Source: Bacillota bacterium (lineage in GTDB: Bacteria; Bacillota; Clostridia; Christensenellales; Aristaeellaceae). From it: a stretch of DNA of 64,000 nt. This document shows, in pieces, positions 36,392-52,696 of this stretch. The stretch spans positions 1,344 through 65,343 of the forward strand of contig JAEVYX010000017.1 in NCBI GenBank assembly GCA_023392515.1, written 5' to 3'. Both the position numbers and the translations under genes were made by a program. Below the pieces are notes generated by a model. It was not told the DNA's origin. It was given only the letters and a program-made list of their open reading frames with translations, and did not search any database. Position 1 is the first letter of the stretch. Each line of letters begins with the position of its first letter.

Positions 36392-36425
36392 GCAATTAAG
36401 GTTACAAATAACACCAAAAAGCCTA

Positions 36426-36474: not shown

Positions 36475-36537
36475 CTCTTTTTGATGTGATAATTACGTCC
36501 GCGTGGTTTTCGAATCAATTGGAAAGGAAATAACGGG

Positions 36538-37464: not shown

Positions 37465-37471
37465 TATCATA

Positions 37472-38737
37472 ATGAAGACAAGAGCACTCAGGTTATATGG
37501 AGCTTCAGACCTGCGGTTGGAATCTTTTGAACTTCCGGAAATTCGGGATGATGAAATTCTGGTGGAAGTTATTACTGACAGTATCTGCATGTCCACCTAT
37601 AAATGCGCTACCCTGGGAGTAAAGCACAAAAGAGTTCCCAAGGATGTGGCGCAGCATCCGGTTATCATGGGGCATGAATTTGCCGGCAATATCGTAAAGG
37701 TGGGAAAAAAGCATCAGCATAAATTTGCACCTGGCATGAAATTTACTTTGCAGCCGGCTTTAAACTACAAGGGCAGCATGGCGTCTCCTGGTTACTCTTA
37801 TCAATTCTTTGGAGGGGATGCCACCTACTGCATCATTCCGCAAGAGGTGATGGAGCTGAATTGTTTGCTTGAATATGGCGGCGATGCTTATTTTGAAGCA
37901 TCCCTGGCCGAGCCTATGAGCTGTTCCATCGGCGCATTCCATGCTTGCTTTCATACAAAAATGGGTGTGTATCACCATGACATGGGAATTCGAGAAGGCG
38001 GAAAAGTGGCGATACTTGCGGGGGCAGGCCCTATGGGGTTGGGCGCTATTGATTATGCCCTTCATTGTGACCGGAGGCCTAGACAGCTTGTTGTAACGGA
38101 CATCAATGAGGAACGCCTTGTAAGGGCGCGAGAGCTTTTTTCTAAAGAAAACGCGAAGAAAATCGGCATCGATCTGGAATTTATCAACACTTCGGAATTG
38201 GACAATCCTGCAGCAAGTTTGCGTTTATTATCTGACGGCGGTTTTGATGATGTTTTTGCTTTTGCTCCGGTTCGATCTGTAGCGGAGCTGGCATCCAAAA
38301 TTTTGGGCAGGGACGGCTGCCTCAATTTCTTCGCCGGCCCGGAGGATCCGGGATTCAGCGCAGAGCTTAATTATTATGATGTGCACTATAATTCTGCTCA
38401 CGTAATCGGAACTACCGGGGGCAACACACAGGATATGATTGAATCCCTGGAACTGACAGCGGCGGGGCGGATTACACCTGCGGTTATGGTAACGCATATC
38501 GGCGGCTTGGATGCAGCGGGAGAAGCTACCTTGCATTTGCCATCAATCCCTGGTGGGAAAAAATTGATATATACACATATAAACATGCCGCTAACGGCAA
38601 TTGCGGAATTCGGCAGCAAAGCGGCAGAGGATAAGCGGTTTGGGGATTTGGATCAAATCACCAGAAAAAATGGCGGCTTGTGGTGTTTGGAAGCTGAACG
38701 GTATCTGATGCAGCATTGGACCAAGATAGATGCTTGA
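37472..38737 (+). CDS. L-sorbose-1-phosphate-reductase-like (SorE-type) zinc dehydrogenase
   Basis: 421 aa. The segments MKTRALRLYGASDLRLESFELPEIRDDEILVEVITDS, GHEFAGNIVKVGKKHQHKFAPG, FFAGPEDPGFSAELNYYDVHY and GGKKLIYT align with my recollection of enterobacterial SorE. Confidence 0.65.
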   Translation: MKTRALRLYGASDLRLESFELPEIRDDEILVEVITDSICMSTYKCATLGVKHKRVPKDVAQHPVIMGHEFAGNIVKVGKKHQHKFAPGMKFTLQPALNYKGSMASPGYSYQFFGGDATYCIIPQEVMELNCLLEYGGDAYFEASLAEPMSCSIGAFHACFHTKMGVYHHDMGIREGGKVAILAGAGPMGLGAIDYALHCDRRPRQLVVTDINEERLVRARELFSKENAKKIGIDLEFINTSELDNPAASLRLLSDGGFDDVFAFAPVRSVAELASKILGRDGCLNFFAGPEDPGFSAELNYYDVHYNSAHVIGTTGGNTQDMIESLELTAAGRITPAVMVTHIGGLDAAGEATLHLPSIPGGKKLIYTHINMPLTAIAEFGSKAAEDKRFGDLDQITRKNGGLWCLEAERYLMQHWTKIDA

Positions 38738-38958: not shown

Positions 38959-39723
38959 TCAATCCTCCGCGAAATGGAGCTTTGTGCGAAACTCGTTCCA
39001 GCATTCGTTTTCAAATACATTGGAACGGTTGGTAATGATGGAGGTTACCTCTGAGAGGGGGGCTACTTTGCAGAAGGCGGTGCGCCCAAACTTGCTGGAA
39101 TCTGCCAGAAGAACGACGGACTTGGCCTGGCGCATCATGGTTGATTTCAGATTGGCGACTTCCTCCCCTTGGTCGGTCAAGCCGTTTTTGCTATCCACGG
39201 ATTGAACGGAGAAAAGAAAGATATCTGCAAATTTCTTTGTAACGCAGCTTTCGGCAAATGGCCCGACCAACGAAGCCGTGTTGCGGTGATAAGTTCCGCC
39301 GGTACAAATGAGGGTACACTTGATTTGTTCGGCAACCAAAGTAGATGTTTGCAAACAGTTGGTGATAATTGTCAAATTTGCCTTATGGGCAAGAAAAGGG
39401 ATTAATTCCATCACGGTTGTGCTGGCATCCAGAAACAATACGTCATTATCCCGGACTAGGTCGGCAGCCTTTCTGGCGATACGTTTTTTTTCTGCATTAT
39501 GTTCCGCCGCTCTCACGGCCAGAGGTGTCTCAACGTTGGAACCTGAATTGCAGATGGCGCCGCCCCGAATTCTTCTGATCAATCCTTGCTGCTCCAATTC
39601 CTCCAGGTCCCGCCTAATGGTTGCCTCACTAAAAAAGAGCTGATCACGCAAGTGGATAACAGACAGAAAGGAATTGGTTTGAAACAGCTCCATGATCTTC
39701 TGCTGACGTTCGATGCCCAGCAT
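38959..39723 (-). CDS. DeoR-family transcriptional regulator
   Basis: ORF 38959-39768. ATG 39723 lies 7 nt after GGGAGGG. The HTH reads VIHLRDQLFFSEATIRRDLEELEQQG. The sensor motif is LFLDASTTVMELIPFL. Confidence 0.85.
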   Translation of the reverse strand: MLGIERQQKIMELFQTNSFLSVIHLRDQLFFSEATIRRDLEELEQQGLIRRIRGGAICNSGSNVETPLAVRAAEHNAEKKRIARKAADLVRDNDVLFLDASTTVMELIPFLAHKANLTIITNCLQTSTLVAEQIKCTLICTGGTYHRNTASLVGPFAESCVTKKFADIFLFSVQSVDSKNGLTDQGEEVANLKSTMMRQAKSVVLLADSSKFGRTAFCKVAPLSEVTSIITNRSNVFENECWNEFRTKLHFAED

Positions 39724-39868
39724 AGTTGTGCCCTCCCTGTAATTGAATCTTGAATAGCGCCTGCCCATTTACTGCTTATTCCGCATATGGATGGCGGCCA
39801 GGATTTTGGAACGAAGAAGCGGGAAAGGGAGATTTGCTGCATGGTTTTTGCACGAAGTATTGCACTAT

Positions 39869-39925
39869 TTGATTGATTAATGATTAACGAATGATTGAAA
39901 ATGACCGATGATGATTGAAGGATGG
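39869..39925. promoter_or_regulatory. Cluster of ATGATTGA-type repeats in the divergent DeoR/ABC control region
   Basis: TTGATTGATTAATGATTAAC (39869-88), ATGATTGAAAATGAC (39891-905) and ATGATTGAAGGATGG (39911-25). Confidence 0.45.
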
Positions 39926-40281
39926 GGATTCCGTGCGTAATGCAAAATCTTGCTGCCCCTCTTTCACTCACAAAAATTATAGTATAAAATAGGCATGAAG
40001 TCAACGAAATGTATGGTAAATTGTACAATCGATAAATGATTCGCCGTTGCTTTGCACAATTTGATAAAAATAGCGATCAAAATGTGACGGTAATTGATTG
40101 GAAAGTAACGATTGTTGAGCGGAATGGAAAGGTAAATGCAGGAAAACGCTCAAATTCTTACACGACCCCTGTTGCATATGTGGTAACCATTGCAACTTGG
40201 ATATTCCTATAGGAAGGAGTGAAAAATCCACACGCGTTACCTTGAAAAACAACTATAAAAACAATAAGGAGGAAATGGATA

Positions 40282-41562
40282 ATGAAAAAATTGGTAGCAC
40301 TGACGTTGGCCCTCATACTCGCTATTGGCATGGTGCAGATCGCCTCAGCCGACGAGCCCACCGTAATTCAATTCTGGCACTCCTACGGTTCTGGTGCAAA
40401 CATGGAGGCAACTGACAAGGTTGTTGCTGGGTTTAATGAACTGTATAAAGGCAAGTACGAAGTGGTTGCCACCTTCCAGGGAAACTACGCCGAACTTCTG
40501 AGCAAGTTCATGGTTGCGTATCCCGCTAACGAAAACCCCACCATCTCCATCTGTGACGCTCCTGACTCCCAGCAGCTCATTACGTACAGCATGCTGGAGA
40601 ACATCACTGCCTTGGACGCAGCAGATGATGAGTTCGATGCCAACGATTTCTTGGATGGTTTTATGAACTATGGTACTGCTGCTGATGGCACCGTATACGC
40701 TCTGCCGTTTGCCCGCTCCACTCCCCTCATGTATGTGAACCTGGACTTGGTCAAGCAAGCTTATGGCGAAGCGATCGTTCCCAAGACCTGGGATGAATTC
40801 CTTGCTGTGGCGAAAGCTGTTCGCGATAACACCGACAAAGAAGCTTTCACTTGCGAAATTTCCAACTGGTTCTATGGAAACTTTGTAACCGCTCAGGGCT
40901 ATCAGTTCCTCACCGATGACGGCCAAGGCTCCATGCTGGCTGTTGACGATGCGGCTCTCAAGGCTTTGGAATGGTGGGGCATGCTCAAGGAAGAAGGCCT
41001 GTACGCCGTTCCCCCTCTCACCTCTCAGGGCACCTGGATGCTGGAAGAATTCTACAAGGGCAACATCGCTATCCTGTTCCAGTCCACTGGCAACGCCCGT
41101 AACGTAGCCAAGAACACCGAGGGCAAGTTTGAAGTGGCCGCTGGATTCCTGCCTGCCAAAGCCCGCAATGCTGTCAGCACCGGCGGCGGAAACATCGTAA
41201 TGTTCAACAACCGCAGCGAGGCCGAAAAAGAAGCCGGCTGGGCATTCCTGAAGTATGCTACCAATTTGGAGAATAACGCTGCTTTCAACGAGGGTACCGG
41301 CTACATGCTGACCCACAAGGATTCCGCCTCTCTGGAAAGCGTGCAGAAGCTGTGGGAAGAAGCCCCCATGTTCAAGGTTGCTTACGACCAGTTGCAGTAT
41401 GTATATGACTGCTACGTATCTCCCTACTGGGCCGAGCTGAATCTGGAGATCGTAAAAACGCTGCAGAGCTTCCTCCAGGATGGCACAATGAACGCGCAAC
41501 AGGCGTACGAAGAAATCCTCTTCTCCTGTGACACCATTCTGCCTAACGGAAACGTTAAGTAA
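40282..41562 (+). CDS. Family-1 extracellular solute-binding protein (sugar / glycerophosphodiester-type)
   Basis: MKKLVALTLALILAIGMVQIASA looks like a signal peptide. The RBS is AAGGAGG. It is 426 aa. Confidence 0.85.
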   Translation: MKKLVALTLALILAIGMVQIASADEPTVIQFWHSYGSGANMEATDKVVAGFNELYKGKYEVVATFQGNYAELLSKFMVAYPANENPTISICDAPDSQQLITYSMLENITALDAADDEFDANDFLDGFMNYGTAADGTVYALPFARSTPLMYVNLDLVKQAYGEAIVPKTWDEFLAVAKAVRDNTDKEAFTCEISNWFYGNFVTAQGYQFLTDDGQGSMLAVDDAALKALEWWGMLKEEGLYAVPPLTSQGTWMLEEFYKGNIAILFQSTGNARNVAKNTEGKFEVAAGFLPAKARNAVSTGGGNIVMFNNRSEAEKEAGWAFLKYATNLENNAAFNEGTGYMLTHKDSASLESVQKLWEEAPMFKVAYDQLQYVYDCYVSPYWAELNLEIVKTLQSFLQDGTMNAQQAYEEILFSCDTILPNGNVK

Positions 41563-41584
41563 GAGAAAACCTTTTTAATGAAAC

Positions 41585-41630
41585 CTGTCCAGCCTGTCTT
41601 AGACAGGCTGGACAACCTTCCCTTTTTTCC
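41585..41630 (+). terminator. Strong hairpin plus T-run directly after the SBP gene (intra-operon attenuator)
   Basis: TGTCCAGCCTGT-cttag-ACAGGCTGGACA is followed by accttcccTTTTTTcc. Confidence 0.75.
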
Positions 41631-41750
41631 CTCTTTTGTTTTCACGTTGATATCTGATATGGATATTGTTCCGGCGCTCAATGAAATGCCTGACGCCTCT
41701 GCCGGAAATCTTAGACAATTCAATCATTTTTCATCAACAGGAGGTTTATC

Positions 41751-42791
41751 ATGGCACAAATCGAATTTCGAAATGTCACCAAGAAATTCGGCGACCGGGC
41801 AATCATCGAAAACATGAACCTCACTATCAAGGATGGTTCTTTTACCGTTTTGATAGGCCCCTCTGGTTGCGGAAAAACAACGCTTTTACGCATGATAGCC
41901 GGTATTGGTCCACAAACGTCCGGGCAGGTTCTGCTGGATGGTGTGGATATTTCCCATACCCAGCCGGGTAAGCGCGGTGTTGCTATGGTTTTCCAGAATT
42001 ACGCGATATACCCTACCATGACCGTTCGTGAGAATATCGAATTCGGTCTTAAAAACAACAAGGTTCCTGAGAAGGAAAGAAAATCGCTGATTGACGAAAT
42101 CAGCCAGATTGTTGGCATTGCTGATTTGCTGGATCGTAAGCCGGGTACGTTGTCCGGCGGACAGCGTCAGCGCATCGCCTTAGCCAGAGCAATGGTAAAA
42201 AAACCCAAAGTATTCCTGATGGACGAACCGCTGTCCAACCTGGACGCAAAGCTGCGTGTTGCAATGCGCATCGAGCTGATTGAGCTGCACAAACAGTTGA
42301 AAACCACCTTCGTTTATGTAACACATGACCAGGTCGAAGCAATGTCCATGGCAGATAATATTATCCTGATGAATAAAGGTATCATTCAGCAGGAGGATGC
42401 GCCTCATGATATATATCACAACCCTCATAATATGTTTACCGCCCAATTCATCGGCTCTCCTCAAATGAACATATTGCCGGCAGAGACGGATGGGGTGTGT
42501 TTTGGCTTCCGGCCTGAGAAGGTCATTCTGTCCAATCTGGATTGCGGCGGCTTTTATTGCGGTGTGGGCCGTATCATCACCAAAGAAATGCTGGGCTCAG
42601 AAACGATTTATCAGATTCGATTCGAAGGCCGCTCCATCATGGTCAAGAGTTTGGATGAAACGTTTGAAGCAGATCGGGACATCAAGTTTTCCGTTCGTGA
42701 GGAAGACATTCTCTTTTTTGACAGGGACAAAAATCGAATTTTCCAAACAGATGGGCAGTATGCGATCCAACTGGCCAAACTGAGGAGGTAG
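41751..42791 (+). CDS. ABC transporter ATP-binding protein (MalK/UgpC/MsmX type)
   Basis: Walker A GPSGCGKTT, signature LSGGQRQRIALARA and Walker B VFLMDEPLSNLD, plus a C-terminal regulatory-type domain. Confidence 0.9.
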   Translation: MAQIEFRNVTKKFGDRAIIENMNLTIKDGSFTVLIGPSGCGKTTLLRMIAGIGPQTSGQVLLDGVDISHTQPGKRGVAMVFQNYAIYPTMTVRENIEFGLKNNKVPEKERKSLIDEISQIVGIADLLDRKPGTLSGGQRQRIALARAMVKKPKVFLMDEPLSNLDAKLRVAMRIELIELHKQLKTTFVYVTHDQVEAMSMADNIILMNKGIIQQEDAPHDIYHNPHNMFTAQFIGSPQMNILPAETDGVCFGFRPEKVILSNLDCGGFYCGVGRIITKEMLGSETIYQIRFEGRSIMVKSLDETFEADRDIKFSVREEDILFFDRDKNRIFQTDGQYAIQLAKLRR

Positions 42792-42795
42792 TCTG

Positions 42796-43683
42796 ATGAA
42801 CGACCTGTCACGAAGCCAACGAATGGATAAAGTTCGGCCATACCTGTTTATATTGCCAGCCATGGTGTTCCTAGGTGTCTTTGTAATATATCCTATCATT
42901 GACTTAATCATCCGCAGTTTTCAGACCTGGAATCTGGTTAATCCGCCAACGTGGGCGGGGCTTAAGAATTATCAAATCATTTTTCGCAAGCGTGACTTTT
43001 TGGATTCTCTGGTGAATACCGGGGTATATACGGTCTTCGGTGTAAGTATCCAGCTGGGGCTTTCTATCCTATTAGCGACGTGGCTACGCAAGTCTAAAAG
43101 GTTGAACAACTTTACGAGAACCGCCATGTTTATGCCCCACATCATTTCTCTTTTATCCGTAGCAATGGTGTGGATGTGGATCATGGATGAAAAGACAGGC
43201 TTGCTGAATCTTGTTTTGGGCTGGTTTGGCGTGCCTGGTCTACGCTGGCTGCAAAGCTCTGATACTGCCATGATGTCTATCATCCTTGTTTCCGTCTGGA
43301 AAAGCTTGGGGTATCACACCATGATCATCTATGCCGCACTCCAGGGTGTTCCTTCGGAGCTGTATGAGGCGGCTGATTTGGATAATGCCGGGCGTTTGCG
43401 CACCTTCTTTAAGATCACCCTGCCCATGATCTCTCCTCAGACATTCATGTTGCTGATCACCATGACTATTGGCTCATTTAAAGTTTTTGAAACCATCCGC
43501 ATCATGACAGGCGGCGGCCCAGGCTCGGCGACAGAGGTGTTGGTCTACTACATTTATCAGCAAGCCTTCTATTACCAGAAGGTGGGCCTGGCTTCGGCAG
43601 CCGGCGTCGTGCTTCTTGCCATCGTCGGCGTTCTGACGGCAATCTATTTTCTGGCACTTTCCAAGAAGGTGCACTATCAATAA
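42796..43683 (+). CDS. ABC transporter permease
   Basis: The EAA loop is YEAADLDNAGRLRTFFKITLPMISP. Confidence 0.9.
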   Translation: MNDLSRSQRMDKVRPYLFILPAMVFLGVFVIYPIIDLIIRSFQTWNLVNPPTWAGLKNYQIIFRKRDFLDSLVNTGVYTVFGVSIQLGLSILLATWLRKSKRLNNFTRTAMFMPHIISLLSVAMVWMWIMDEKTGLLNLVLGWFGVPGLRWLQSSDTAMMSIILVSVWKSLGYHTMIIYAALQGVPSELYEAADLDNAGRLRTFFKITLPMISPQTFMLLITMTIGSFKVFETIRIMTGGGPGSATEVLVYYIYQQAFYYQKVGLASAAGVVLLAIVGVLTAIYFLALSKKVHYQ

Positions 43684-43717
43684 GCACTTCGCGTGCTGGA
43701 AAAGGAGTGGCTGTCTC

Positions 43718-44545
43718 ATGAAGGAAAATATCAGCATATCCAAGGTGTTGGCTTTCTTAGCAAAATGCGTGCTGATTGTTATTTTCATTTTTCCCTTTCT
43801 TTGGATGATTGTTACCGCCTTTAAGACCTACGATGAAACCATCATTTATCCGCCCACACTCATTCCTCAAAGCCTGCAGTGGGTGAACTTTAAAACCGTA
43901 TGGGAATCCGGCCCGTATTTGATGTATCTGAAAAACAGTCTAGTTGTCACCTTGTCCATCCTGGCGATCCAGATTTTTGTCATGGTGCCCGCGTCGTTTT
44001 CGTTTGCACGGTATAAATTCAAGGGTAACGGGCTGTTGTTTGGTGTGGTTATGATCGCCTTTATGATTCCGTCCCAGATCACATTTATCTCGATTTACTT
44101 CATGTTTGCCAAACTGGGATGGCTCAAGACGCTCCTGCCTCAGATTCTTCCTTTCGGTGCCAATGCGTTTGGTATTTTCCTGCTGCGTCAGGCCTTTAAG
44201 CAGGTTCCGGAAGAGATTCTGGAATCAGCTCGCCTGGACAATGCCACAGAGATGCAATTGCTGAGCAGGGTGATGCTGCCCATGGCGAAACCAACATTGA
44301 TTTCTATCATGATGCTCGCCTTTATCAGCCATTGGAATGACTACTTCTGGCCTTTCGTTATGACCAACTCCATTGAGGTTCGGCCCTTAACCATTGGTAT
44401 TGCCGCGCTTAGGAGCATTGAAGGTGCATTTGATTGGCATATCATCATGGCTGGCAATGTGATTCTTGTTATGCCGATTGTGCTGGTGTATCTCTTCTTT
44501 AATAAAAAAATTGTCAATGCATTTGTCTATAACGGCATCAAATAG
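43718..44545 (+). CDS. ABC transporter permease
   Basis: The EAA loop is LESARLDNATEMQLLSRVMLPMAKP. Confidence 0.9.
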   Translation: MKENISISKVLAFLAKCVLIVIFIFPFLWMIVTAFKTYDETIIYPPTLIPQSLQWVNFKTVWESGPYLMYLKNSLVVTLSILAIQIFVMVPASFSFARYKFKGNGLLFGVVMIAFMIPSQITFISIYFMFAKLGWLKTLLPQILPFGANAFGIFLLRQAFKQVPEEILESARLDNATEMQLLSRVMLPMAKPTLISIMMLAFISHWNDYFWPFVMTNSIEVRPLTIGIAALRSIEGAFDWHIIMAGNVILVMPIVLVYLFFNKKIVNAFVYNGIK

Positions 44546-44576
44546 TGACATTCACAAAGGCGGAAGAGGAAACGAT

Positions 44577-45425
44577 ATGACGCTAGTTTCAACAAAGAAA
44601 ATGTTGTTGGATGCACAGAGTGGCGGCTATGCCGTTGGAGCATTCAATGCAGAGAATATGGAGATGGCTCAGGCCATCATTAGTGCTGCGCAGGCTTTGA
44701 ATGCGCCGGTGATTGTACAAACAACGCCTTCCACCGTAAAGTACGGGGATTTGCGGCAATTCAGTGCCCTTATTCAAGCGATTGGCAGTGAAGTACAAAC
44801 GCCTGTTGCCATTCACCTGGATCATGGTGATTCTTATGAGCTGGCAGCCCGGGCCGTGCTGGCAGGGTACACCTCCGTAATGATTGACGGCTCAGCCAAG
44901 CCCTATGAAGAAAATGTGGCCATAACCCGAAAGGTTGTGGAAATAGCCTCGCTGGCAGGGGTTTCTGTGGAGGCGGAGCTTGGCAAGGTCGGGGGCAAGG
45001 AGGACGGTCTTTTCGTGGAAGATGAGGCTTATACCGATCCTGAGACTGCTGCTGATTTTGCAAAAAGAACAGCCGTAGATTCCCTCGCGGTGGCGATAGG
45101 AACCGCTCACGGCTTATATGCCAAGACGCCCAAACTTGATGTAATGCGTTTAAAAGAAATCCGCCGAAGAGTGGATATTCCCCTCGTTCTCCATGGTGCT
45201 TCGGGCCTTTCCGAGGACGATGTCCGCCGGTGCATTGGCGAGGGTATTTGCAAGGTGAATTTTGCTACAGAACTGCGAATCGCCTACAGCAATGCGGTTT
45301 CTCAAACATTCAGCCAAAAGCCGGATGTGTTCGACCCCAAGGTTTATGGGAAAGCAGCCAGAATTCAAGTACAGAAACTTGTAGAAAACTGGATTACAGT
45401 CCTCGGCTGTGCGGGAAGGGCATAG
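44577..45425 (+). CDS. Class II ketose-bisphosphate aldolase family (GatY/KbaY/Fba-like)
   Basis: ORF 44466-45425, but its 5' part overlaps the permease. ATG 44577 follows GGAAGAGGA. Motifs YAVGAFNAENMEMAQAII, AIHLDHG, VEAELG, AVAIGTAHG and LVLHGASG. Confidence 0.85.
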   Translation: MTLVSTKKMLLDAQSGGYAVGAFNAENMEMAQAIISAAQALNAPVIVQTTPSTVKYGDLRQFSALIQAIGSEVQTPVAIHLDHGDSYELAARAVLAGYTSVMIDGSAKPYEENVAITRKVVEIASLAGVSVEAELGKVGGKEDGLFVEDEAYTDPETAADFAKRTAVDSLAVAIGTAHGLYAKTPKLDVMRLKEIRRRVDIPLVLHGASGLSEDDVRRCIGEGICKVNFATELRIAYSNAVSQTFSQKPDVFDPKVYGKAARIQVQKLVENWITVLGCAGRA

Positions 45426-45457
45426 CCCTACCGCATTGCTGGGAGGTTGATGTCCAT

Positions 45458-46957
45458 ATGAAAGAGTATTTGCTCGGAATTGATATTGGCTCCTCTGCAG
45501 TGAAACTGGCCCTGGCACGTACCGATGGGGAAACTGTGGCGAGCGCTTCGGGAAATTATCCCACCTATTATCCCCAAAGGGGATGGGCGGAGCAAAACCC
45601 CAATGACTGGTGGCAGGCAATTTGCCAGCAAATACGCTCACTTATTAAAAATGCGGGAATAGCGGCCAGGGATATCGGAGCCATTGGCGTGGACGGATAC
45701 AGTTGGGCAGCGGTGGCCTTGGGAAAAAAAGGCCAGGTGCTATGCAATACGCCTCTTTGGTATGATATACGGGCTGCAGAAGAGTGCACGTTTATAAGGG
45801 AGCAGCTGGGAGAAGAGCAGGTTTTTGATTTGTGCGGAAACCCTGTTCATCCCAACTATACCCTGCCCAAAGTATTGTGGTATAAAAATCATTTGGCAAA
45901 GGTAGTTCCAGGCATCCACACGATTCTGCAAACCAACGGTTTTATTGTCTACCGCTTGACGGGGGAGCTGACCCAGGACGTGTCCCAGGCATATGGGTAT
46001 CACTGTTTTGATATCCGGCGGGGAACGTGGAACTTAGGCATGCTGGAAAAGCTGGGCATTGATCCCCAATGGCTCCCCGAGATTTCTTCCTGCAGCCAAG
46101 TGGTGGGAACGGTTACGGCTGCGGCTGCCCGGGAGACGGGGCTGCATCCTGGAACGCTTGTTGTGGCTGGGGGGCTGGATGCTGCCTGCGGCACATTAGG
46201 TGCGGGCGTTCTCCACCGGGGTCAGACCCAAGAGCAAGGCGGGCAAGCTGGCGGTGTGAGCATTTGCACAGATGATTGCATACCGGTTAAAAACATGATT
46301 CTCAGCAACCATGTAGTGCCCGGCCGATGGCTTGTGCAGGGAGGCACGGTGGGCGGCGGCGGGATTATGCGCTGGCTTGCCGGTATCCTGAAGGCACAGG
46401 AAAGTGCGGACAGCGCTGAATACTTCGCACAGATGGATCAATGGGCCGGGCAGGTGCCCGCAGGTGCCGAAGGGCTTTTATTTTTGCCCTATATGGCCGG
46501 CGAACGGTCACCCATCTGGGATGAAAATGCCAAGGGTGTTTTCTTTGGGCTGGATTATGCTAAAAATCGCGGACATATCATCCGTGCCGCAATGGAAGGG
46601 GCTGCTTTTGCGCTTAAGCACAATTTAGAAGCAGCAGGGTCGGCAGCCGACAACGTTCAGGAAATGAGGTCAGTTGGCGGTGCGTCCAAAAGCAGCATAT
46701 GGATGCAGATAAAAGCCGATATCACCGGCATACCCATCCGCCCGGCAGGGGGCGATTTGGCTACCGCCCGAGGGGCGCTAATCCTGGCAGGCGTTGGAAC
46801 CGGGATGCTTCCCGGCTTTGAAAAGGCATGTGAGCAGTTTGTGCAGTTGGGGCCTGTATATGTCCCGGATGGAGCACAAAAGGCACGCTATGATGTGAAC
46901 TATGATCGGTATTTACGGCTTTATACACAGCTGAAAGAATTAATGAAAGGGTGTTGA
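45458..46957 (+). CDS. FGGY-family carbohydrate kinase (xylulokinase-like)
   Basis: ORF 45230-46957. ATG 45458 lies 11 nt after GGGAGG. Motifs LLGIDIGSSAVK, GWAEQNPNDWW and VGGASKSSIWMQIKADITG. Confidence 0.85.
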   Translation: MKEYLLGIDIGSSAVKLALARTDGETVASASGNYPTYYPQRGWAEQNPNDWWQAICQQIRSLIKNAGIAARDIGAIGVDGYSWAAVALGKKGQVLCNTPLWYDIRAAEECTFIREQLGEEQVFDLCGNPVHPNYTLPKVLWYKNHLAKVVPGIHTILQTNGFIVYRLTGELTQDVSQAYGYHCFDIRRGTWNLGMLEKLGIDPQWLPEISSCSQVVGTVTAAAARETGLHPGTLVVAGGLDAACGTLGAGVLHRGQTQEQGGQAGGVSICTDDCIPVKNMILSNHVVPGRWLVQGGTVGGGGIMRWLAGILKAQESADSAEYFAQMDQWAGQVPAGAEGLLFLPYMAGERSPIWDENAKGVFFGLDYAKNRGHIIRAAMEGAAFALKHNLEAAGSAADNVQEMRSVGGASKSSIWMQIKADITGIPIRPAGGDLATARGALILAGVGTGMLPGFEKACEQFVQLGPVYVPDGAQKARYDVNYDRYLRLYTQLKELMKGC

Positions 46958-46977
46958 GATTGGCACTTCAACAGACC

Positions 46978-48024
46978 ATGAAGGCGGCTGTTTTGCATGG
47001 ACAAGGGGATATACGTTACGAAGACTACCCTATGCCCCAGTTGAAAGCAGGTCATATATTGATAAAAGTGCGGGCGGCGGGCATCTGTGGATCTGATATT
47101 CCACGGGTGCTTGGTACGGCCGCTCATTTTTTTCCCATTGTACTTGGTCATGAATTCTCCGGAGAAGTGATGGAAGCAGGAGAAGGTGTTACCCAGTTTC
47201 AGGTGGGCGATCGGGTGGTAGCGGCACCTCTCGTTCCCTGTGGTGTTTGCAATGATTGCCAGGAGGGCTCCTATGCCCTTTGCAAACATTATACCTTTAT
47301 TGGCTCCCGGCAGCAGGGCGGATTTGCGGAATATGTGGTAATACCGGCGGCAAATGCAGTCAAGTTTTCTTCCGACTATTCATTTTCACAGGCTGCCTTG
47401 TTTGAGCCGGCAGGCGTCGCGCTGCATGGCTTAATTCAAAACAGTTATCTGGGCGGCGGTACTGTGGCCATTCTGGGTGCAGGTACCATTGGCGTATTTA
47501 CTGGACAGTGGGCGCAAATTTTCGGCGCTGAAAAAGTGGTCTTCTTCGATGTGGATGAGGAGCGGCTGAAAATTGCCACTGAAATCACGGGAGGTAAAGG
47601 GATTAACCTAAGCCTTTCCAATGGACGTGAGGAGGCTATGAAAGTTACCAACGGAAAGGGCTTTTCATACGTATTTGGCACTTCCGGCGCTTCGGAAACC
47701 ATCAACATGGCCTTTTCTATTGCGGCTAACAAGGCCAAAATCTGTTTTATTGGAACGCCAACCGGCCCCGTTTCCTTTACGGCGGAAGAATGGGAACTGA
47801 TGAACCGGCATGAATTTACCGTAACAGGCTCTTGGATGAGCTATTCCGCACCTTTTCCCGGCAGGGAATGGACCCTTACCGCTGAAATGATGGGCCAGGG
47901 AAGATTGAAATTCGATGAGCGGTTTATTTACAAAAAGTTTTCTCTGGCGCAATGTGCTGAGGCGTTTGCATCCTTTCAGCATCCCGGGCAGGTAAAGGGA
48001 AAAATTCTTCTGGTCAATGAATAA
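46978..48024 (+). CDS. Galactitol-1-phosphate-5-dehydrogenase-like (GatD-type) zinc dehydrogenase
   Basis: GICGSDIPRVLGTAAHFFPIVLGHEFSG, CGVCNDCQEGSYALC and FIGSRQQGGFAEYVV align with my recollection of E. coli GatD (GLCGSDLPRIF..GAHYYPITLGHEFSG; FIGSRRDGGFAEYIV). The start could instead be TTG 46960. Confidence 0.7.
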   Translation: MKAAVLHGQGDIRYEDYPMPQLKAGHILIKVRAAGICGSDIPRVLGTAAHFFPIVLGHEFSGEVMEAGEGVTQFQVGDRVVAAPLVPCGVCNDCQEGSYALCKHYTFIGSRQQGGFAEYVVIPAANAVKFSSDYSFSQAALFEPAGVALHGLIQNSYLGGGTVAILGAGTIGVFTGQWAQIFGAEKVVFFDVDEERLKIATEITGGKGINLSLSNGREEAMKVTNGKGFSYVFGTSGASETINMAFSIAANKAKICFIGTPTGPVSFTAEEWELMNRHEFTVTGSWMSYSAPFPGREWTLTAEMMGQGRLKFDERFIYKKFSLAQCAEAFASFQHPGQVKGKILLVNE

Positions 48025-48028
48025 GTCT

Positions 48029-48043
48029 ACGATTGAAAATGTT
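48029..48043. promoter_or_regulatory. Copy of the GATTGAAAATG motif
   Basis: ACGATTGAAAATGTT lies in the 33-nt gap between the GatD-like and PfkB genes. Confidence 0.3.
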
Positions 48044-48057
48044 AGTATGAGGATCTT

Positions 48058-48990
48058 ATGATAGCGACAATTACGCTGAATGCATCCATCGACAGGCGTT
48101 ATGTGGTGGAAAGCACTCAATGGGGCGTTGTTCACCGTGTTAAGAGCTGTACCAGCACGGCAGGCGGCAAAGGGCTCAATGTTGCAAGAATCATCCATGC
48201 CTTGGATGAAAAAGTGATAGCAGGTGGATTTGCGGGTGGTTTCTCAGGGGCCTTTCTGCTTAAAATGCTTGCCCAGGAAGGGGTTCCTGAGGCCTTTGTG
48301 AAAGTACAGGGCGAAACGCGCTCCTGCATTAATGTACACGATCTTACGACAGGCGTCCAAACGGAATTCCTGGAGCCGGGAACAGCTGTTTTGCCTGGGG
48401 AATATAATGAATTTTTGGCTGTATACCGGGAGCTTTTAAAGGAATGCCGGGTGGTCAGCCTGTCAGGCAGCCTGCCCGGAGGGCTGGATGTTGCAGCGTA
48501 CGGTAATCTAATTCGCATTGCAAAAGAGAGCGGTGCCAAGGTGCTTTTGGACACAAGCGGCCCGGCTCTCATGGCGGCTTTGCCTTTTGGGCCTTCAGTC
48601 ATCAAGCCGAATGAAGAGGAAATCAGGCAGCTTGCCGGTGAGAACACACAATCTTTGCAGGCACTGGCTTATGAGGCGCAAAAATTGCACCGGCAGGGTA
48701 TTGAGCGGGTGGTTGTCTCCCTGGGCGCAAGGGGTGCGCTTCTGGCCTGTGAGCAAGGTGTGTACCATGGAAAGCCACCACAAATTCAACCTTTGAATAC
48801 CGTTGGATGCGGTGATGCCATGACAGCCTCCTTTGCGGTGAGCTTTTCCCGGGGGGACGATTCCCGGGAGGCGTTGCGCCAGGCAATTGCCGTTTCAGCG
48901 GCCAGCGCCCTTTCGCTAGATACAGGCGGGCTTGACAAAAACGAGTATGAAAAGATATTGCCGTTGGTCCGGCTAGAAAAGTTGCTGTGA
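48058..48990 (+). CDS. PfkB-family ketose-phosphate kinase (tagatose-6-P / fructose-1-P kinase-like)
   Basis: Motifs MIATITLNASIDRRY, TAGGKGLNVA and TVGCGDA. Confidence 0.8.
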   Translation: MIATITLNASIDRRYVVESTQWGVVHRVKSCTSTAGGKGLNVARIIHALDEKVIAGGFAGGFSGAFLLKMLAQEGVPEAFVKVQGETRSCINVHDLTTGVQTEFLEPGTAVLPGEYNEFLAVYRELLKECRVVSLSGSLPGGLDVAAYGNLIRIAKESGAKVLLDTSGPALMAALPFGPSVIKPNEEEIRQLAGENTQSLQALAYEAQKLHRQGIERVVVSLGARGALLACEQGVYHGKPPQIQPLNTVGCGDAMTASFAVSFSRGDDSREALRQAIAVSAASALSLDTGGLDKNEYEKILPLVRLEKLL

Positions 48991-49032: not shown

Positions 49033-50328
49033 ATGAGTCAGCATTTGATTGTTATCTCGGAGGATGCCTTGGTTTACGAGGACCTGGAAACGCTGAAGAC
49101 GCTGCCTAACTTCTCAAAAGTATGGGAAAAGACGGCTCGGGTAAACAGGACGCGTTCCGTATATCCCAGTCTGACGTATCCATGTCATACAAGCATGCGG
49201 ACTGGAATGTATCCCAATCGCCATGGGATTATCAATAATGAAAAAAGCACGCTTTGTGAGAAAAGCTCCCCATGGGTACTGTTTAATGATGCGGTAAAGG
49301 TGCCTGATGTGTTTGATGCGGCAAAGAAAAAGGGGCTTACCACAGCCGCTGTATTCTGGCCGGTGACAGGAAACCATGCCTCCATTGACTACCTGGTAAA
49401 CGAATATTGGCCCCAAAGCCCTGAGGAGACTACACGGGACTGTTTTGCAAACTCCGGAAGTTCCCCTGAAGTGATGGAAAAAGTTGTGGATAAGAACTTG
49501 CATATGCTGATCAACAGGGTACATCCCTATTGCGATGCATTTATTCATGCTTGTGCCTGCTCCATTATCAGGGAATTCAAACCGAACCTGCTGATGATCC
49601 ATCCTGCCAATGTGGATGATTATCGCCACAAATCCGGGCTTTTCTCCACATTGGTAACCCATGGACTCCACGAGATTGATCTGTGGCTGGGGGACATTAT
49701 CAAAGCTGCGCAGGATGCGGGCATCTATGAGGATACGGACTTTGTTATTACCAGCGACCATGGACAGCTGAATATCATTAGAACCATTTCCCCCAATGTG
49801 GTTTTTGCCGATCATGGGCTGATCCAGGTTGATTCAAATGGAGACATTGCGGATTTTACCGCCTTTTGCAAATCCACCGCACTTTCAGCCCAGGTATATT
49901 TAAAAAACCCCAACGATAAAGCTGCTTATGACAAGACGTTGCAATTGCTTACCCATATGTGCGAAGAGGGAATTTACGGCATAAACCGCGTCTATACTGC
50001 CGAAGAGGCCGAACAAGAGGAGCATTTGGCCGGAGATTTTTCCTTTGTCATTGAAAGCGATGGCTATTCGTCTTTTACAAACAATTGGGTACGCCCGATT
50101 GTGCGCAATAAAGATATCACGGATTACCGCTTTGGACATGCCACCCATGGCCATCATCCGGATAAAGGACCCCAGCCCACTATGGTGGCCTTTGGCCCCC
50201 GGTTCCGTGCCGGTGCTGTGGTGGAAAGAAGACCACTAGTAGACGAAGCAGCCACCTTCGCCCGTGTGCTGGGTTTGGAAATGGGCGATATTGACGGTAA
50301 AGCCATTGAAGAAATCCTGAATGTGTAA
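49033..50328 (+). CDS. Alkaline-phosphatase-superfamily type I phosphodiesterase/nucleotide pyrophosphatase (NPP)-like enzyme, cytoplasmic
   Basis: YPSLTYPCHTSMRTGMYPNRHGIINN parallels the NPP nucleophile-Thr segment (FPTKTFPNHYS..TG..P..HGI..N). SDHGQ and HGHH metal-ligand-like motifs are present. No signal peptide. Confidence 0.7.
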   Translation: MSQHLIVISEDALVYEDLETLKTLPNFSKVWEKTARVNRTRSVYPSLTYPCHTSMRTGMYPNRHGIINNEKSTLCEKSSPWVLFNDAVKVPDVFDAAKKKGLTTAAVFWPVTGNHASIDYLVNEYWPQSPEETTRDCFANSGSSPEVMEKVVDKNLHMLINRVHPYCDAFIHACACSIIREFKPNLLMIHPANVDDYRHKSGLFSTLVTHGLHEIDLWLGDIIKAAQDAGIYEDTDFVITSDHGQLNIIRTISPNVVFADHGLIQVDSNGDIADFTAFCKSTALSAQVYLKNPNDKAAYDKTLQLLTHMCEEGIYGINRVYTAEEAEQEEHLAGDFSFVIESDGYSSFTNNWVRPIVRNKDITDYRFGHATHGHHPDKGPQPTMVAFGPRFRAGAVVERRPLVDEAATFARVLGLEMGDIDGKAIEEILNV

Positions 50329-50372: not shown

Positions 50373-51191
50373 ATGCTGTATCAGGAAATGCAGCTTCATG
50401 TGCCAGGACAGCAGGAGACAGCCGCATTAATTTCCTACATCCCTTCCAACAGCCCGGAAATTGAGCAGGATCGCCGCCGTCCGGCAGTGATTGTATGTCC
50501 AGGGGGTGGATATCACTTTTTGTCTGACCGGGAGGCAGAGCCCATCGCCATCCGGTTGAATGCCTTGGGGCTGAACGTCTTCATTTTGCGCTATAGTGTG
50601 TCACCCGCCCGCTACCCCGTGCCTCAAAGGCAGCTGGCCATGGCGGTGCATTTGGTGCGCAGCCAAGCGGCGGAATTTGCGACTGATCCCAATAAAATCT
50701 TTGTAGCCGGCTTTTCTGCCGGCGGGCATTTGGCTGCCAGCCTGGGTATACTTTGGAAGGATGCTGCATGCTTTGCGGAATTGGGTCTTTCCCCGGAAGC
50801 AATTCGTCCCAACGGAATGATTTTGAGCTATCCTGTCATCACTTCGGGAGAATTCGCCCATCGCAACTCTTTCCTTTGTCTGCTGGGAGAAAAGCATGAT
50901 GCCTTAAAGGATCAGGTCTCCCTGGAAAAGCGGGTAACGGATGATGCCGTACCTGCGTTTATATGGCATACCTACGAGGATGAGCTGGTACCGGTAGAAA
51001 ACAGCTTGCTGCTGGCTATGGCACTGCGGGCCCACCTTGTTCCTATGGAACTGCACATTTATCCCTTTGGGCGGCACGGCCTTTCCCTCTCCAATAATCA
51101 GGTATACGGGCCTGATGCAAAAACCGCCATACGGCCCGAGTGCAAAGACTGGATTGATATGGCGGCTCGGTGGATATTTTCCTTTGAGTAA
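50373..51191 (+). CDS. Alpha/beta-hydrolase-fold esterase (Aes/BD-FAE-like)
   Basis: The oxyanion region is VIVCPGGGY and the nucleophile elbow is GFSAGGHLA. Late D/H residues (YEDELVP; GRHGLS) are present. Confidence 0.75.
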   Translation: MLYQEMQLHVPGQQETAALISYIPSNSPEIEQDRRRPAVIVCPGGGYHFLSDREAEPIAIRLNALGLNVFILRYSVSPARYPVPQRQLAMAVHLVRSQAAEFATDPNKIFVAGFSAGGHLAASLGILWKDAACFAELGLSPEAIRPNGMILSYPVITSGEFAHRNSFLCLLGEKHDALKDQVSLEKRVTDDAVPAFIWHTYEDELVPVENSLLLAMALRAHLVPMELHIYPFGRHGLSLSNNQVYGPDAKTAIRPECKDWIDMAARWIFSFE

Positions 51192-51245
51192 ATGTTTCAC
51201 GTATAAAATAGGATAATATAAAAAGCAGCTATTAAGGAGCTATGT

Positions 51246-52625
51246 ATGGTGGATTTTTCAAAACTGTCTTTGGAGGAGCTTATACAAAGGGATGGTTTTG
51301 ATTGTGACTGCGGCTGTCATCACCAGGTAAAGGTTCAGCATGTAAAAATCGGAGCCGATGCGGCAGCCAGCCTGCCAGGTGTGCTGGCGAGCCTTAATGT
51401 CATTAGACCTTTTGTGGTTTGTGATCAGAATACGGCAGCAGTCGCTTGGCCCAAGGTGAAAGCGCTGCTGGAAAAGGCGCAAATCCCCTATCAGCTTTTT
51501 GTTTTTCCGCAGCAGCGTGTGGAGCCGGATGAGGCCGCGATAGGCGCGCTTGCCATGGCTTTTGACCCGGAATGTGATGTGATTTTAGGCGTTGGCTCCG
51601 GTGTTATCAATGATTGCTGCAAGGTTTTGGCTAAAGTGAGCGCAAGACCATTTCTCATCGTCGCCACTGCACCTTCCATGGACGGATACGCATCTGACTC
51701 TGCCTCCATGATTCAAAACCGCGTGAAGGTTTCGCTGGGAACGCCTTGCCCTCTAGCAGTCATCGCGGATACGGATATTGTTGCGAATGCCCCGATGCGC
51801 ATGCTGCAGGCGGGCCTTGGTGACATGATGGCTAAATATACTGCATTGTGCGAATGGCGGATCGCACATTTGGTGATCGGAGAATATTACTGCCCGCATG
51901 TAGCTGAATTGGTCCGTTGTTCTCTTAAAAAGTGCGTCAATCATGCGGAAAAGCTGGTTCTCAGAGACCCGGATGCGGTGGAAGCGGTCATGGAAGGGCT
52001 CATTATAACCGGTATTGCGATGAGCTTTGCAAAATGCTCCAGACCTGCCTCCGGACTGGAACATTATTTTTCACATATGTGGGAAATGATGGCGCTGGAT
52101 AAAAACATTCCAGCCGATCTGCACGGTATTCAGGTGGGGGTTGGTACGCATCTCACATTGATGATATTTGACAGCTTAGCCAATGAAATGCCCGATTGGG
52201 CACAGGCACAAAAACATCTGTCTAACTTTGATGAAGCAGCATGGGAGCAAGAAATGCGGGAGATTTTCGGCAAAGCATCCAATGCCGTAATTCAAGGCGA
52301 AAGAAATAAATTCCACAAAAATGACCTGGGAGAATTGGCCCGGCGGATCCATTTCATTCAACTTCATTGGGAGGAAATCCTGACGGTAGTAAAGCAGGAA
52401 CTTCCTGCATCCAAGGATTTGCTGGCCTTGATGCGGCGCCTGGGCATGCCTGCATGGCCCCAGGAACTGGGGCTGAGCCCGCAGGATGTCAAACAGGCGT
52501 TGATAGGATCCCGGGATATCCGTGATAAGTATCTGGTCAGCTCTCTCTTGTGGGATTTAGGCAAGCTGCACGATTACGCGAATATGCTTGCAGCCTCCGG
52601 AAAAGGTGGCGATTCCAAGCAGTAA
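51246..52625 (+). CDS. sn-Glycerol-1-phosphate dehydrogenase-like (AraM/EgsA family, DHQS-like fold)
   Basis: GVGSGVINDCCK, TAPSMDGYAS, NAPMRMLQAGLGDMMAKYTALCEWRI and SRPASGLEHYFSHMWEM align with my recollection of B. subtilis AraM (AVGSGTIHD; TAPSVDGFTS; AAGFGDMLGKITSLADWEI; SRPASGGEHHISHWIEM). Confidence 0.65.
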   Translation: MVDFSKLSLEELIQRDGFDCDCGCHHQVKVQHVKIGADAAASLPGVLASLNVIRPFVVCDQNTAAVAWPKVKALLEKAQIPYQLFVFPQQRVEPDEAAIGALAMAFDPECDVILGVGSGVINDCCKVLAKVSARPFLIVATAPSMDGYASDSASMIQNRVKVSLGTPCPLAVIADTDIVANAPMRMLQAGLGDMMAKYTALCEWRIAHLVIGEYYCPHVAELVRCSLKKCVNHAEKLVLRDPDAVEAVMEGLIITGIAMSFAKCSRPASGLEHYFSHMWEMMALDKNIPADLHGIQVGVGTHLTLMIFDSLANEMPDWAQAQKHLSNFDEAAWEQEMREIFGKASNAVIQGERNKFHKNDLGELARRIHFIQLHWEEILTVVKQELPASKDLLALMRRLGMPAWPQELGLSPQDVKQALIGSRDIRDKYLVSSLLWDLGKLHDYANMLAASGKGGDSKQ

Positions 52626-52696
52626 GACCCTGGGGCATTCGCATCGCATCGCAAAAGATTTATTTATTCGGCAAAATTATGAGGAGACAAATGACG

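Follow-up and report, generated by a model that had tools for sequence, protein, structure and literature searches.

Known routes for galactitol and related polyols

The described systems closest to the operon considered here are the gatYZABCD clusters of enterobacteria (Escherichia coli, Klebsiella). The operon lies in a 64,000-nucleotide stretch of contig JAEVYX010000017.1 from a Bacillota bacterium (the whole stretch is called the window below), and the chances that it is a single DeoR-controlled unit feeding a galactitol-type hexitol into glycolysis without a phosphotransferase system (PTS) are put at somewhat better than even. Like the enterobacterial clusters it has a dehydrogenase of the GatD subfamily, a GatY-like class II aldolase and a regulator of the DeoR repressor type, and the predicted intermediates, galactitol-1-phosphate, tagatose-6-phosphate and tagatose-1,6-bisphosphate, are those of the Gat pathway. 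With 34-46% identity to the E. coli Gat proteins, the resemblance is at the level of families and not of equivalogs. However, the enterobacterial clusters have the GatABC PTS and GatZ and the window has neither, a soluble FGGY-family kinase being predicted to act after import by a transporter of the ATP-binding cassette (ABC) type; and where E. coli relies on PfkA, the window operon encodes a dedicated PfkB-family kinase.

A different type of relative is provided by the tag cluster of E. coli Nissle and the tagatose operons of Sinorhizobium meliloti and A. tumefaciens, which are PTS-independent, ABC-based routes via tagatose-6-phosphate (PMC9720028). In the Nissle cluster, as here, a GatY-like aldolase is encoded with no GatZ alongside it, and in the S. 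meliloti and A. tumefaciens operons a tagatose-6-phosphate epimerase replaces the aldolase step (PMC9720028), in parallel to the GatZ-like variants described below. All have a CUT2 importer, and their tagatose kinase, of the PfkB family, phosphorylates the free ketose; galactitol, where it is used, is oxidised first by an unrelated dehydrogenase (PMC9720028), whereas the window has a CUT1, Ugp-like importer, and entry would be by an FGGY kinase and a GatD-type medium-chain dehydrogenase/reductase (MDR). Since PTS-independent, GatZ-less routes are thus already published, novelty lies in the entry enzymes. The CUT2 hallmarks (Peripla_BP_4, a double-domain ATPase and BPD_transp_2) are replaced in the window importer by SBP_bac_1/8, a single-domain MalK-type ATPase and two BPD_transp_1 permeases.

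Phosphorylation by an FGGY kinase as the first step of polyol catabolism has precedents in GlpK and EryA, glycerol being processed by GlpK and then GlpD or GpsA, and erythritol by EryA and then EryB. Shared with these is PTS-free import of a polyol, phosphorylation of a terminal hydroxyl by an FGGY enzyme and subsequent action of a polyol-phosphate dehydrogenase, as predicted here; different are the six-carbon substrate and the zinc-dependent MDR, in place of a GlpD-type flavoenzyme or GpsA. The ugpBAECQ operon, for sn-glycerol-3-phosphate and glycerophosphodiesters, is similar in that the genes of a CUT1 importer, with its solute-binding protein (SBP), pair of permeases and MalK-type ATPase, precede one for a cytoplasmic phosphodiesterase. 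That phosphodiesterase is the GDPD-type UgpQ, whereas in the window it is of the NPP/alkaline-phosphatase type, with a hexitol-to-triose module inserted before it. The Gram-positive lacABCD system converts tagatose-6-phosphate to triose phosphates with a PfkB-family kinase and an aldolase, as is predicted here, but its aldolase is the class I LacD and that of the window is class II and GatY-like. No LacAB-like or LacD-like gene is present among the operon genes.

Operon layout and the route proposed

The layout is taken from the open reading frames (ORFs) of the window and from independent gene calls on an identical public contig (L006), which agree. NCBIfam and Pfam scores, here and below, are in bits and are set against the curated cut-off of the model.

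38959..39723, - strand: divergent DeoR/GlpR-family regulator (GlpR/SrlR/AgaR-type NCBIfam matches; HTH_DeoR and DeoRC domains)
40282..41562, + strand: CUT1 SBP, lipoprotein-type, distantly UgpB-like (UgpB the sole NCBIfam match)
41751..42791, + strand: single-domain ABC ATPase of UgpC/MalK type (UgpC 383.4 bits, cut-off 432; MalK 333 bits)
42796..43683, + strand: UgpA-like CUT1 permease (UgpA 161.7 bits, cut-off 335; BPD_transp_1)
43718..44545, + strand: UgpE-like CUT1 permease (UgpE 115 bits, cut-off 297; BPD_transp_1)
44577..45425, + strand: GatY/KbaY-like class II ketose-1,6-bisphosphate aldolase (GatY subfamily model)
45458..46957, + strand: FGGY-family carbohydrate kinase (FGGY_N and FGGY_C domains; XylB model best)
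46978..48024, + strand: zinc-dependent MDR dehydrogenase of the GatD subfamily (GatD first among both NCBIfam models and solved structures)
48058..48990, + strand: PfkB-family hexose-phosphate kinase, FruK/LacC/PfkB-2 subfamily (TIGR03168)
49033..50328, + strand: NPP/alkaline-phosphatase-superfamily phosphodiesterase (Pfam Phosphodiest 144.8 bits; distant NPP solved structures)
50373..51191, + strand: alpha/beta-hydrolase esterase (lp_1002-family arylesterase 180.8 bits, cut-off 300)

From the SBP to the PfkB kinase the genes follow one another on the + strand with gaps of 188, 4, 34, 31, 32, 20 and 33 nt, in keeping with the limit of about 190 nt given in a preliminary description of the locus. 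That description counted nine genes in 40282-48990; there are eight, the ninth same-strand gene, for the phosphodiesterase, beginning some 40 nt beyond. Its assignment of each gene to a family is borne out by the NCBIfam scores.

The route proposed, as deduced from sequence and gene context, would begin with uptake by the Ugp-like CUT1 importer of free galactitol, or of a phosphodiester or ester containing it, cargo of the latter kind being dismantled by the cytoplasmic NPP-type phosphodiesterase and the esterase. The FGGY kinase would convert the free hexitol to galactitol-1-phosphate, which the GatD-like zinc dehydrogenase would oxidise to D-tagatose-6-phosphate. Phosphorylation by the PfkB kinase to D-tagatose-1,6-bisphosphate, and cleavage by the GatY-like class II aldolase, functioning without GatZ, would then yield dihydroxyacetone phosphate (DHAP) and glyceraldehyde-3-phosphate.

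Lack of a PTS in the window, a central point of the preliminary description, is upheld by two kinds of scan. No PTS domain is present in window ORFs of at least 180 amino acids, small EIIA and EIIB proteins of other PTS families not having been searched exhaustively, and tblastn of the 64-kb window with GatA, GatB and GatC of E. coli and with the IIA, IIB and IIC of Ligilactobacillus salivarius gave nothing better than E = 0.15, which is noise, as was everything obtained with one Glc-type EIIC. With E. coli GatZ as query, tblastn found no match in the window, though ten related loci match. The characterization as a PTS-independent and GatZ-less relative of the Gat pathway is thereby supported for this DNA, but it is not in itself new, as the published ABC routes share both properties (PMC9720028).

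A recurrent four-enzyme module

A search with the dehydrogenase returned more than 5,500 relatives at E <= 1e-40. In a scan of one genome per species at least 600 stretches matched, at least 585 of which encode a relative of the dehydrogenase, and the best 80 of these (dehydrogenase identity 57-86%) were compared after their ORFs had been called, clustered and named by Pfam and NCBIfam. Loci in which the dehydrogenase has 5 kb or more on either side, 61 in number, are termed complete, and counts below refer to them. All of the best 80 are from Clostridia or from metagenome-assembled genomes (MAGs) of unclassified Bacillota, carriers including Blautia, Lacrimispora, Dorea, Hungatella, Faecalicatena, Merdimonas, Anaerocolumna, Clostridium leptum and Oscillospiraceae. 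Given an FGGY kinase in 57 of 61 complete loci and the aldolase likewise in 57, the arrangement is not due to chance. Other common neighbours are an aldo-keto reductase (AKR; 44), PfkB (42), a FucU-type mutarotase (28), CUT2 ABC genes (22) and an aldose 1-epimerase (15). The neighbourhood comparison across Clostridia that the preliminary description had called for thus finds the aldolase-FGGY-dehydrogenase set, usually with PfkB, to be recurrent in the best 80 loci, the commonest order being aldolase-(LacI)-FGGY-dehydrogenase-PfkB-AKR. On a Fusobacteria plasmid genes for FGGY, AKR, dehydrogenase, aldolase, PfkB, FucU and aldose epimerase are again found together.

Uptake genes vary around this core. 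The version in the window, with CUT1 genes, a DeoR regulator and the phosphodiesterase and without an AKR, is present also in L009, L011 and L098 (dehydrogenase identity 86% for L009 and 60% for L011; SBP identity 39% for L098). Most relatives instead have a CUT2 importer together with an AKR and a FucU-type mutarotase, and one, L088, has a GatABC PTS. Independent lineages have ABC genes within the operon. Across Clostridia and Fusobacteria the module of four enzymes constitutes a mobile unit, joined to different uptake systems.

The CUT2/AKR version often adjoins genes of L-fucose type, namely those for a FucU-like mutarotase (115.5 bits on the L-fucose mutarotase model), a GH29 alpha-L-fucosidase and L-fucose isomerase. 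Such neighbours are seen in L014, L034, L047 and L067 (cluster C73) and in nine loci with cluster C28; they raise the possibility that L-galactose enters the route after reduction to galactitol. In L007 (1002-12403) and L008 (702-10200) the aldolase, FGGY and dehydrogenase genes are followed by one for a GH4 glycosidase, and there is no PfkB. The set is divergent from genes for an allose-operon-like CUT2 importer and a member of the ribulose-phosphate-3-epimerase family, with L007 having a ROK kinase and LacI in addition. A hexitol glycoside or psicose-type intermediates may be involved in this variant.

The dehydrogenase and its substrate

The preliminary description had likened diagnostic segments of the 46978-48024 product to E. 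coli GatD and proposed profile placement as a check. GatD (NF007642) is indeed the best model at 277.8 bits (cut-off 550), ahead of threonine dehydrogenase at 190.6, and E. coli GatD (4a2c) is the best solved structure, at 221.5 bits with the next at 143.4. Segments in common with E. coli GatD are CGSDxPR, FIGSR and SWMxYSxPxPGxEW, and P42, R43, S110, R111, R277 and the W286-W298 motif are unchanged, or almost so, across 85 members of the clade and E. coli GatD. In three other MDRs of the window positions 42-43 are H-[VI], the residue at 111 is not basic and the SWMxYSxPxPGxEW segment is absent. At 42-43 the solved xylitol and threonine dehydrogenases show H-[FVIL], and they likewise do without that segment; they, and an uncharacterised Sinorhizobium MDR, have His at the position of P42, and do not keep S110-R111 where the alignment covers it. 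Membership of the GatD subfamily, as first proposed, is supported by this absence of the motifs from the other window MDRs and from solved free-polyol and threonine dehydrogenases. Two PTS-linked MDRs from a plasmid of L. salivarius, which must act on polyol-phosphates, each have a Lys at either 43 or 111. By alignment, positions 43 and 110-111 presumably correspond to the substrate pocket of sorbitol dehydrogenase (Tyr50 and the Thr121 loop).

Further evidence is from L088, a Hungatella MAG locus (2671-12889) with genes for a PRD/EIIA regulator, GatA, GatB and two copies of GatC followed by FGGY, dehydrogenase, PfkB and aldolase. Its GatB scores 110.5 bits (cut-off 95), and the GatC copies, which reach 479 and 501 bits with the model for galactitol EIIC, are 50-53% identical to E. 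coli GatC. As the only dehydrogenase of a GatABC operon, the L088 enzyme must accept the PTS product, galactitol-1-phosphate. Its identity to the L081 and L086 dehydrogenases is 86.5%, and in both those loci there are a CUT2 importer, FGGY, a GatZ-like protein and the aldolase, and no PTS within 10 kb. With that degree of identity the substrate is very likely the same, and the phosphate in the ABC-only loci must then come from the FGGY kinase. Together the invariant GatD motifs and the Hungatella PTS locus point to galactitol-1-phosphate as the substrate of the dehydrogenase, and the window enzyme is predicted to be a galactitol-1-phosphate 5-dehydrogenase yielding D-tagatose-6-phosphate.

The aldolase, the PfkB kinase and the intermediate that they share

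The aldolase scores 375.4 bits on the GatY subfamily model (cut-off 383) and 334.8 on the equivalog of the TBP family (cut-off 443.55). It is 46% identical to E. coli GatY, has AgaY (1gvf, 257 bits) as best solved structure and is predicted to be a tagatose-1,6-bisphosphate aldolase. The PfkB kinase of the operon passes TIGR03168 (316.3 bits, cut-off 216.4), is at the cut-off of the 1-phosphofructokinase (1-PFK) model (292.0, cut-off 292) and is well below the cut-offs of two LacC models (235 against 469, and 215 against 409.55); tagatose-6-phosphate kinase is the activity predicted. On the TagKinase model, NF049991, it is not listed at E <= 1e-5, and a second PfkB encoded just upstream scores 40.2 bits (cut-off 420).

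A further pattern is in loci where a GatZ-like protein of about 435 amino acids (cluster C31) adjoins the FGGY-dehydrogenase pair. There are nine, in eight of which its gene directly follows that for the dehydrogenase. The protein belongs to the AgaZ/GatZ family (TIGR02810, 521.7 bits) and is 40-46% identical to E. coli GatZ; identification of C31 with the GH4 gene that trails the dehydrogenase in L007 and L008 was considered and dropped, as NCBIfam places C31 in the GatZ/KbaZ family. Aldolase and PfkB occur together in 42 of the complete loci, the aldolase without PfkB or the GatZ-like protein in 13, the GatZ-like protein alone in four, and aldolase with the GatZ-like protein in two. PfkB is therefore absent from all six complete loci that have the GatZ-like protein and the aldolase from four of the six, with one or other of aldolase and GatZ-like protein being present in every complete locus (61/61). 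Members of the GatZ/KbaZ family serve as partners of tagatose-bisphosphate aldolase or as tagatose-6-phosphate 4-epimerases. We take the TagE epimerase of S. meliloti to be of this family. (The enzyme itself is described in PMC9720028.) Displacement by a GatZ-like protein makes sense only if the FGGY kinase and the dehydrogenase deliver a tagatose phosphate; tagatose-6-phosphate is most likely the intermediate, and of the several parts of the route the trunk of tagatose phosphates is the one held with high confidence.

The FGGY kinase and the order of steps

Of the characterised specificities xylulokinase is nearest to the FGGY kinase, which however falls short of the cut-offs of both models (TIGR01312, 357.7 bits, cut-off 380.25; NF011601, 239.5, cut-off 912). 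It is far below the cut-offs of all other FGGY equivalogs, GlpK included (184 bits against 590). The TIGR01312 shortfall is narrow and the L088 orthologue passes that model (387.7 against 380.25), so that exclusion of xylulokinase on this ground is weak. The gene is directly upstream of the dehydrogenase gene in 57 of the 61 complete loci, and the product is 45% identical to the orthologue from the Fusobacteria plasmid. The kinase is predicted to be a hexitol (galactitol) kinase making galactitol-1-phosphate, and the order in which it acts before the dehydrogenase is considered probable, if less secure than the trunk that follows.

The preliminary description held that, with no PTS, the FGGY kinase would have to supply the alditol-phosphate. 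The GatZ-like loci and the PTS locus of L088 strengthen this, while the order of the two steps remains deduced. Its further suggestion, of a new kinase specificity feeding a GatD-type enzyme, gains comparative backing as a prediction. It had also noted that no characterised FGGY kinase was known to make a hexitol-1-phosphate; in agreement, no galactitol, hexitol or alditol kinase, no link between FGGY and galactitol, and no account of the present cluster was found in the literature searched, in which most subscription journals were not covered.

The possibility that a PTS takes the place of FGGY in loci lacking the kinase was examined and rejected, since those loci (L012, L028, L036 and L015) carry no PTS. 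On pSymB of S. meliloti (L089, 5261-12569) a GatD-like dehydrogenase and an FGGY kinase are encoded next to a CUT2 importer and a sugar-binding regulator, with neither aldolase nor PfkB. The dehydrogenase is 36% identical to that of the window and has the PR and SR motifs. The pair was not accepted as an orthologous system, its kinase being 26% identical (146 bits) to the window's, from which it follows that an FGGY kinase and a GatD-type enzyme have been paired at least twice independently.

Importer, phosphodiesterase and esterase

For all four transporter components the best NCBIfam match is a Ugp protein, with scores far under the equivalog cut-offs. The SBP has 89.1 bits on the UgpB model (cut-off 411), and its best solved structures are UgpB proteins. 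Of the ligand residues of E. coli UgpB, Y42, S121-T122 and W172 have invariant counterparts in the SBP family, whereas W169 and R374 are not conserved. Searching plasmids with the SBP by tblastn gave matches of no more than about 30% identity and with generic names.

There is no GDPD gene of the UgpQ type in the operon, and the NPP-type phosphodiesterase is in its place. This protein has no signal peptide and is cytoplasmic, and its sequence carries PSLTYPCH..TG..P..HGI, which we take to be the NPP-type nucleophile motif. Its gene is the last of the CUT1 operon version, coming after PfkB in the window, L009, L011 and L098, and in all four the four-enzyme module is placed between the permeases and the phosphodiesterase. 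The esterase gene (50373-51191) is probably co-transcribed, and its product is putatively linked to the pathway. L009 has the same alpha/beta-hydrolase esterase, and in L098 a non-homologous GDSL esterase is at that place after the phosphodiesterase.

Homologues of the SBP with 45-54% identity are found with GDPD and GpsA or with other phosphoesterases in four further loci:

L094: GDPD, GpsA-like glycerol-3-phosphate dehydrogenase, ABC genes and the same NPP-type phosphodiesterase
L095: ABC genes and phosphodiesterase, nothing else
L096, 9080-17462: beside the SBP (45% identical), two permeases, a PHP phosphoesterase at the position of the ATPase, a GatZ/KbaZ-like protein and a short-chain dehydrogenase/reductase (SDR)
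L097: GpsA-like dehydrogenase, ABC genes, an MDR and phosphodiesterase

From its recurrence across loci, the combination of SBP, ABC genes and phosphodiesterase can be regarded as one unit, much like ugpBAEC with ugpQ. L096, which also has a DeoR regulator and an unannotated protein of 352 amino acids, is a second, independent link of this SBP family with a phosphoesterase and with enzymes of tagatose phosphates.

Alternative routes

Several observations weigh against the proposed route. The window dehydrogenase is 34-40% identical to E. coli GatD, with 278 of the 550 bits that the model demands, MDR specificities drift, and a role of R43 and R111 in phosphate binding is presumed from alignment to pocket positions of sorbitol dehydrogenase. 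At about 59-60% identity the window enzyme is some distance from both the PTS-linked enzyme of L088 and the ABC-linked one of L081. The evidence for tagatose-6-phosphate is from related loci and not from the window itself, and the higher score of PfkB on the 1-PFK model than on those for LacC makes a ketose-1-phosphate intermediate possible. Retention of FGGY beside the PTS in L088 would be superfluous if the kinase were purely a replacement for the PTS, and would also fit its being a tagatose kinase. At the point of entry, the nearest relatives of the SBP are in loci of the glycerophosphodiester type, and the cargo may be a phosphodiester or polyol-phosphate instead of free galactitol.

Reversal of the first two steps would give the same stoichiometry with the same four enzymes: the MDR would oxidise free galactitol to free D-tagatose, FGGY would be a tagatose 6-kinase, and PfkB and aldolase would act unchanged. 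Xylulokinase, the best kinase model, is after all a ketose kinase, with the L088 orthologue passing its cut-off, a tagatose kinase in PTS-bearing L088 would be a second entry point, and published ABC-based galactitol routes begin with oxidation (PMC9720028). What makes this order improbable is that the sole dehydrogenase of L088 must accept galactitol-1-phosphate and is 86.5% identical to those of ABC-only loci, that the GatD-specific motifs, including the two Arg residues, are invariant across the clade, and that the tagatose kinases known are of the PfkB family, the TagKinase model giving 40 bits for the upstream PfkB and none for the operon PfkB. Arrival of the substrate with its phosphate already attached was a minor alternative in the preliminary description. 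Although still unlikely, it has become a serious possibility with the Ugp-like importer, phosphodiesterase and esterase. Hexitol-phosphate, or a phosphodiester or ester containing one, such as a teichoic-acid-like or deacylated-lipid fragment, would be taken up, phosphodiesterase and esterase would release hexitol-phosphate and a free alcohol, and FGGY would merely salvage unphosphorylated hexitol by rephosphorylation, with the trunk downstream as already proposed. Consistent with this are the Ugp matches of the transporter parts and SBP, the invariant residues aligning with those of UgpB, the SBP homologues beside genes for GDPD, GpsA, phosphodiesterase or PHP phosphoesterase (L094-L097), the phosphodiesterase closing the operon in four loci, with non-homologous esterases after it in the window and L009 on the one hand and L098 on the other, and a glycerol-1-phosphate-dehydrogenase-like gene further downstream. 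The similarity to UgpB is weak, however (89 bits, cut-off 411), with W169 and R374 not conserved, and CUT1 systems such as SmoEFGK carry free polyols also (PMC10433430). Most relatives pair the module with CUT2, AKR and mutarotases, which indicates free sugars or polyols. We know of no natural galactitol phosphodiester.

The identity of the hexitol is a separate matter. Other candidates are D-altritol, allitol with psicose-6-phosphate as intermediate, and sorbitol or L-iditol with phosphates of sorbose or fructose, in that the aldolase is near the fructose-bisphosphate aldolase models too (332.6, cut-off 343), PfkB is more FruK-like than LacC-like, L007 and L008 combine aldolase, FGGY and dehydrogenase with allose-operon-like CUT2 genes, a ribulose-phosphate-3-epimerase family member and a ROK kinase, and a SorE/YggP-like ketose-1-phosphate reductase and FruK-like kinase are encoded just upstream in the window. 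A substrate other than galactitol is nonetheless quite improbable in view of the displacement by GatZ/KbaZ-family proteins, the L088 PTS being closer to E. coli GatC (50-53%) than to the L. salivarius IIC, presumably of pentitol type (36-39%), and GatD and GatY being the best models. An ordinary pentitol route, with the dehydrogenase making xylulose or ribulose, FGGY a plain xylulokinase, and PfkB and aldolase as passengers, has in its favour the best kinase match. It is hardly to be credited, as 57 of 61 complete loci have the aldolase as a neighbour and either it or the GatZ-like protein is in all 61, neither being needed for pentitols, and the kinase is under both xylulokinase cut-offs.

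Possible significance

If the proposed route is correct, the FGGY kinase has a new specificity and there is a natural example of PTS, CUT2 ABC and CUT1 ABC uptake being interchangeable before one catabolic core. Sugar alcohols and rare sugars, galactitol and tagatose among them, arrive in the colon, and Clostridia are believed to use them there. Annotation of galactitol pathways knows only the PTS route, so that the module would be missed or its products misnamed xylulokinase or iditol dehydrogenase. The importer cargo and the roles of the phosphodiesterase and esterase are the most unexpected parts. In the CUT2 version the AKR and FucU-type mutarotase, often near FucI or GH29 genes, would reduce L-galactose (or D-galactose) to meso-galactitol, and an L-sugar would then be funnelled into a D-tagatose-6-phosphate pathway. 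In the window version the Ugp-like importer, phosphodiesterase and esterase would harvest phosphodiesters containing hexitol-phosphate, such as teichoic-acid-like or lipid-head-group fragments. To our knowledge no catabolic system of that sort has been described, and the combination is a pointer to a possible novel class of phosphodiester nutrients. That FGGY is the first hexitol kinase and that both of these inputs are also real is, taken as a whole, a rather doubtful proposition.

Regulation and neighbouring genes

The DeoR/GlpR-family regulator (38959-39723), which has counterparts at the equivalent position in L009, L011 and L098, is the probable repressor of the operon. Sugar phosphates are common signals for regulators of this family. 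Two candidate control features are in noncoding DNA:

39724..40281, no strand assigned: putative divergent promoter/operator region of 558 nt, AT-rich, with direct repeats and promoter-like hexamers
41585..41615, no strand assigned: GC-rich hairpin with a 14-bp stem, within the 188-nt spacer between SBP and ATPase genes, from a terminator-like scan

Direct repeats resembling ATGATTGA are clustered at 39868-39925, between the DeoR and SBP genes, and could be the operator. Enrichment of ATGATTGA in the window as a whole is not significant, with nine found against 3.7 expected and nine being reached in one of 100 shuffles. From its position the hairpin is probably an mRNA stabiliser or attenuator yielding surplus SBP.

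Beyond the phosphodiesterase gene, further tightly spaced same-strand genes occupy 50373-58494. Besides the esterase, they encode an MDR, an MBL-fold hydrolase, a second MDR, two aldo-keto reductases with Fe-S cluster domains that are strong in one and weak in the other, and the following:

within 50373-58494, + strand: glycerol-1-phosphate-dehydrogenase-like protein of 459 amino acids (209 bits, cut-off 413)

The last-named protein would suit, speculatively, a pathway degrading sn-glycerol-1-phosphate head groups or units of lipoteichoic acid. Just upstream of the operon, at 35535-38737, is a second set of enzymes of the kind that belong to PTS pathways, again with no PTS. It comprises a DeoR regulator, a FruK-like PfkB that passes the 1-PFK model with 327 bits, and an MDR of 421 amino acids with 50-52% identity to E. 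coli YggP and SorE (L-sorbose-1-phosphate reductase). The MDR could oxidise hexitol-phosphate made by FGGY to a ketose-1-phosphate or might belong with a PTS whose genes are elsewhere. An ORF of 1121 amino acids in the upstream half of the window (17342-20707), with no Pfam match at E <= 1e-6, has as neighbours glycoside-hydrolase genes of the GH3, GH31, GH27-like, GH125, DUF2961 and DUF4432 types.

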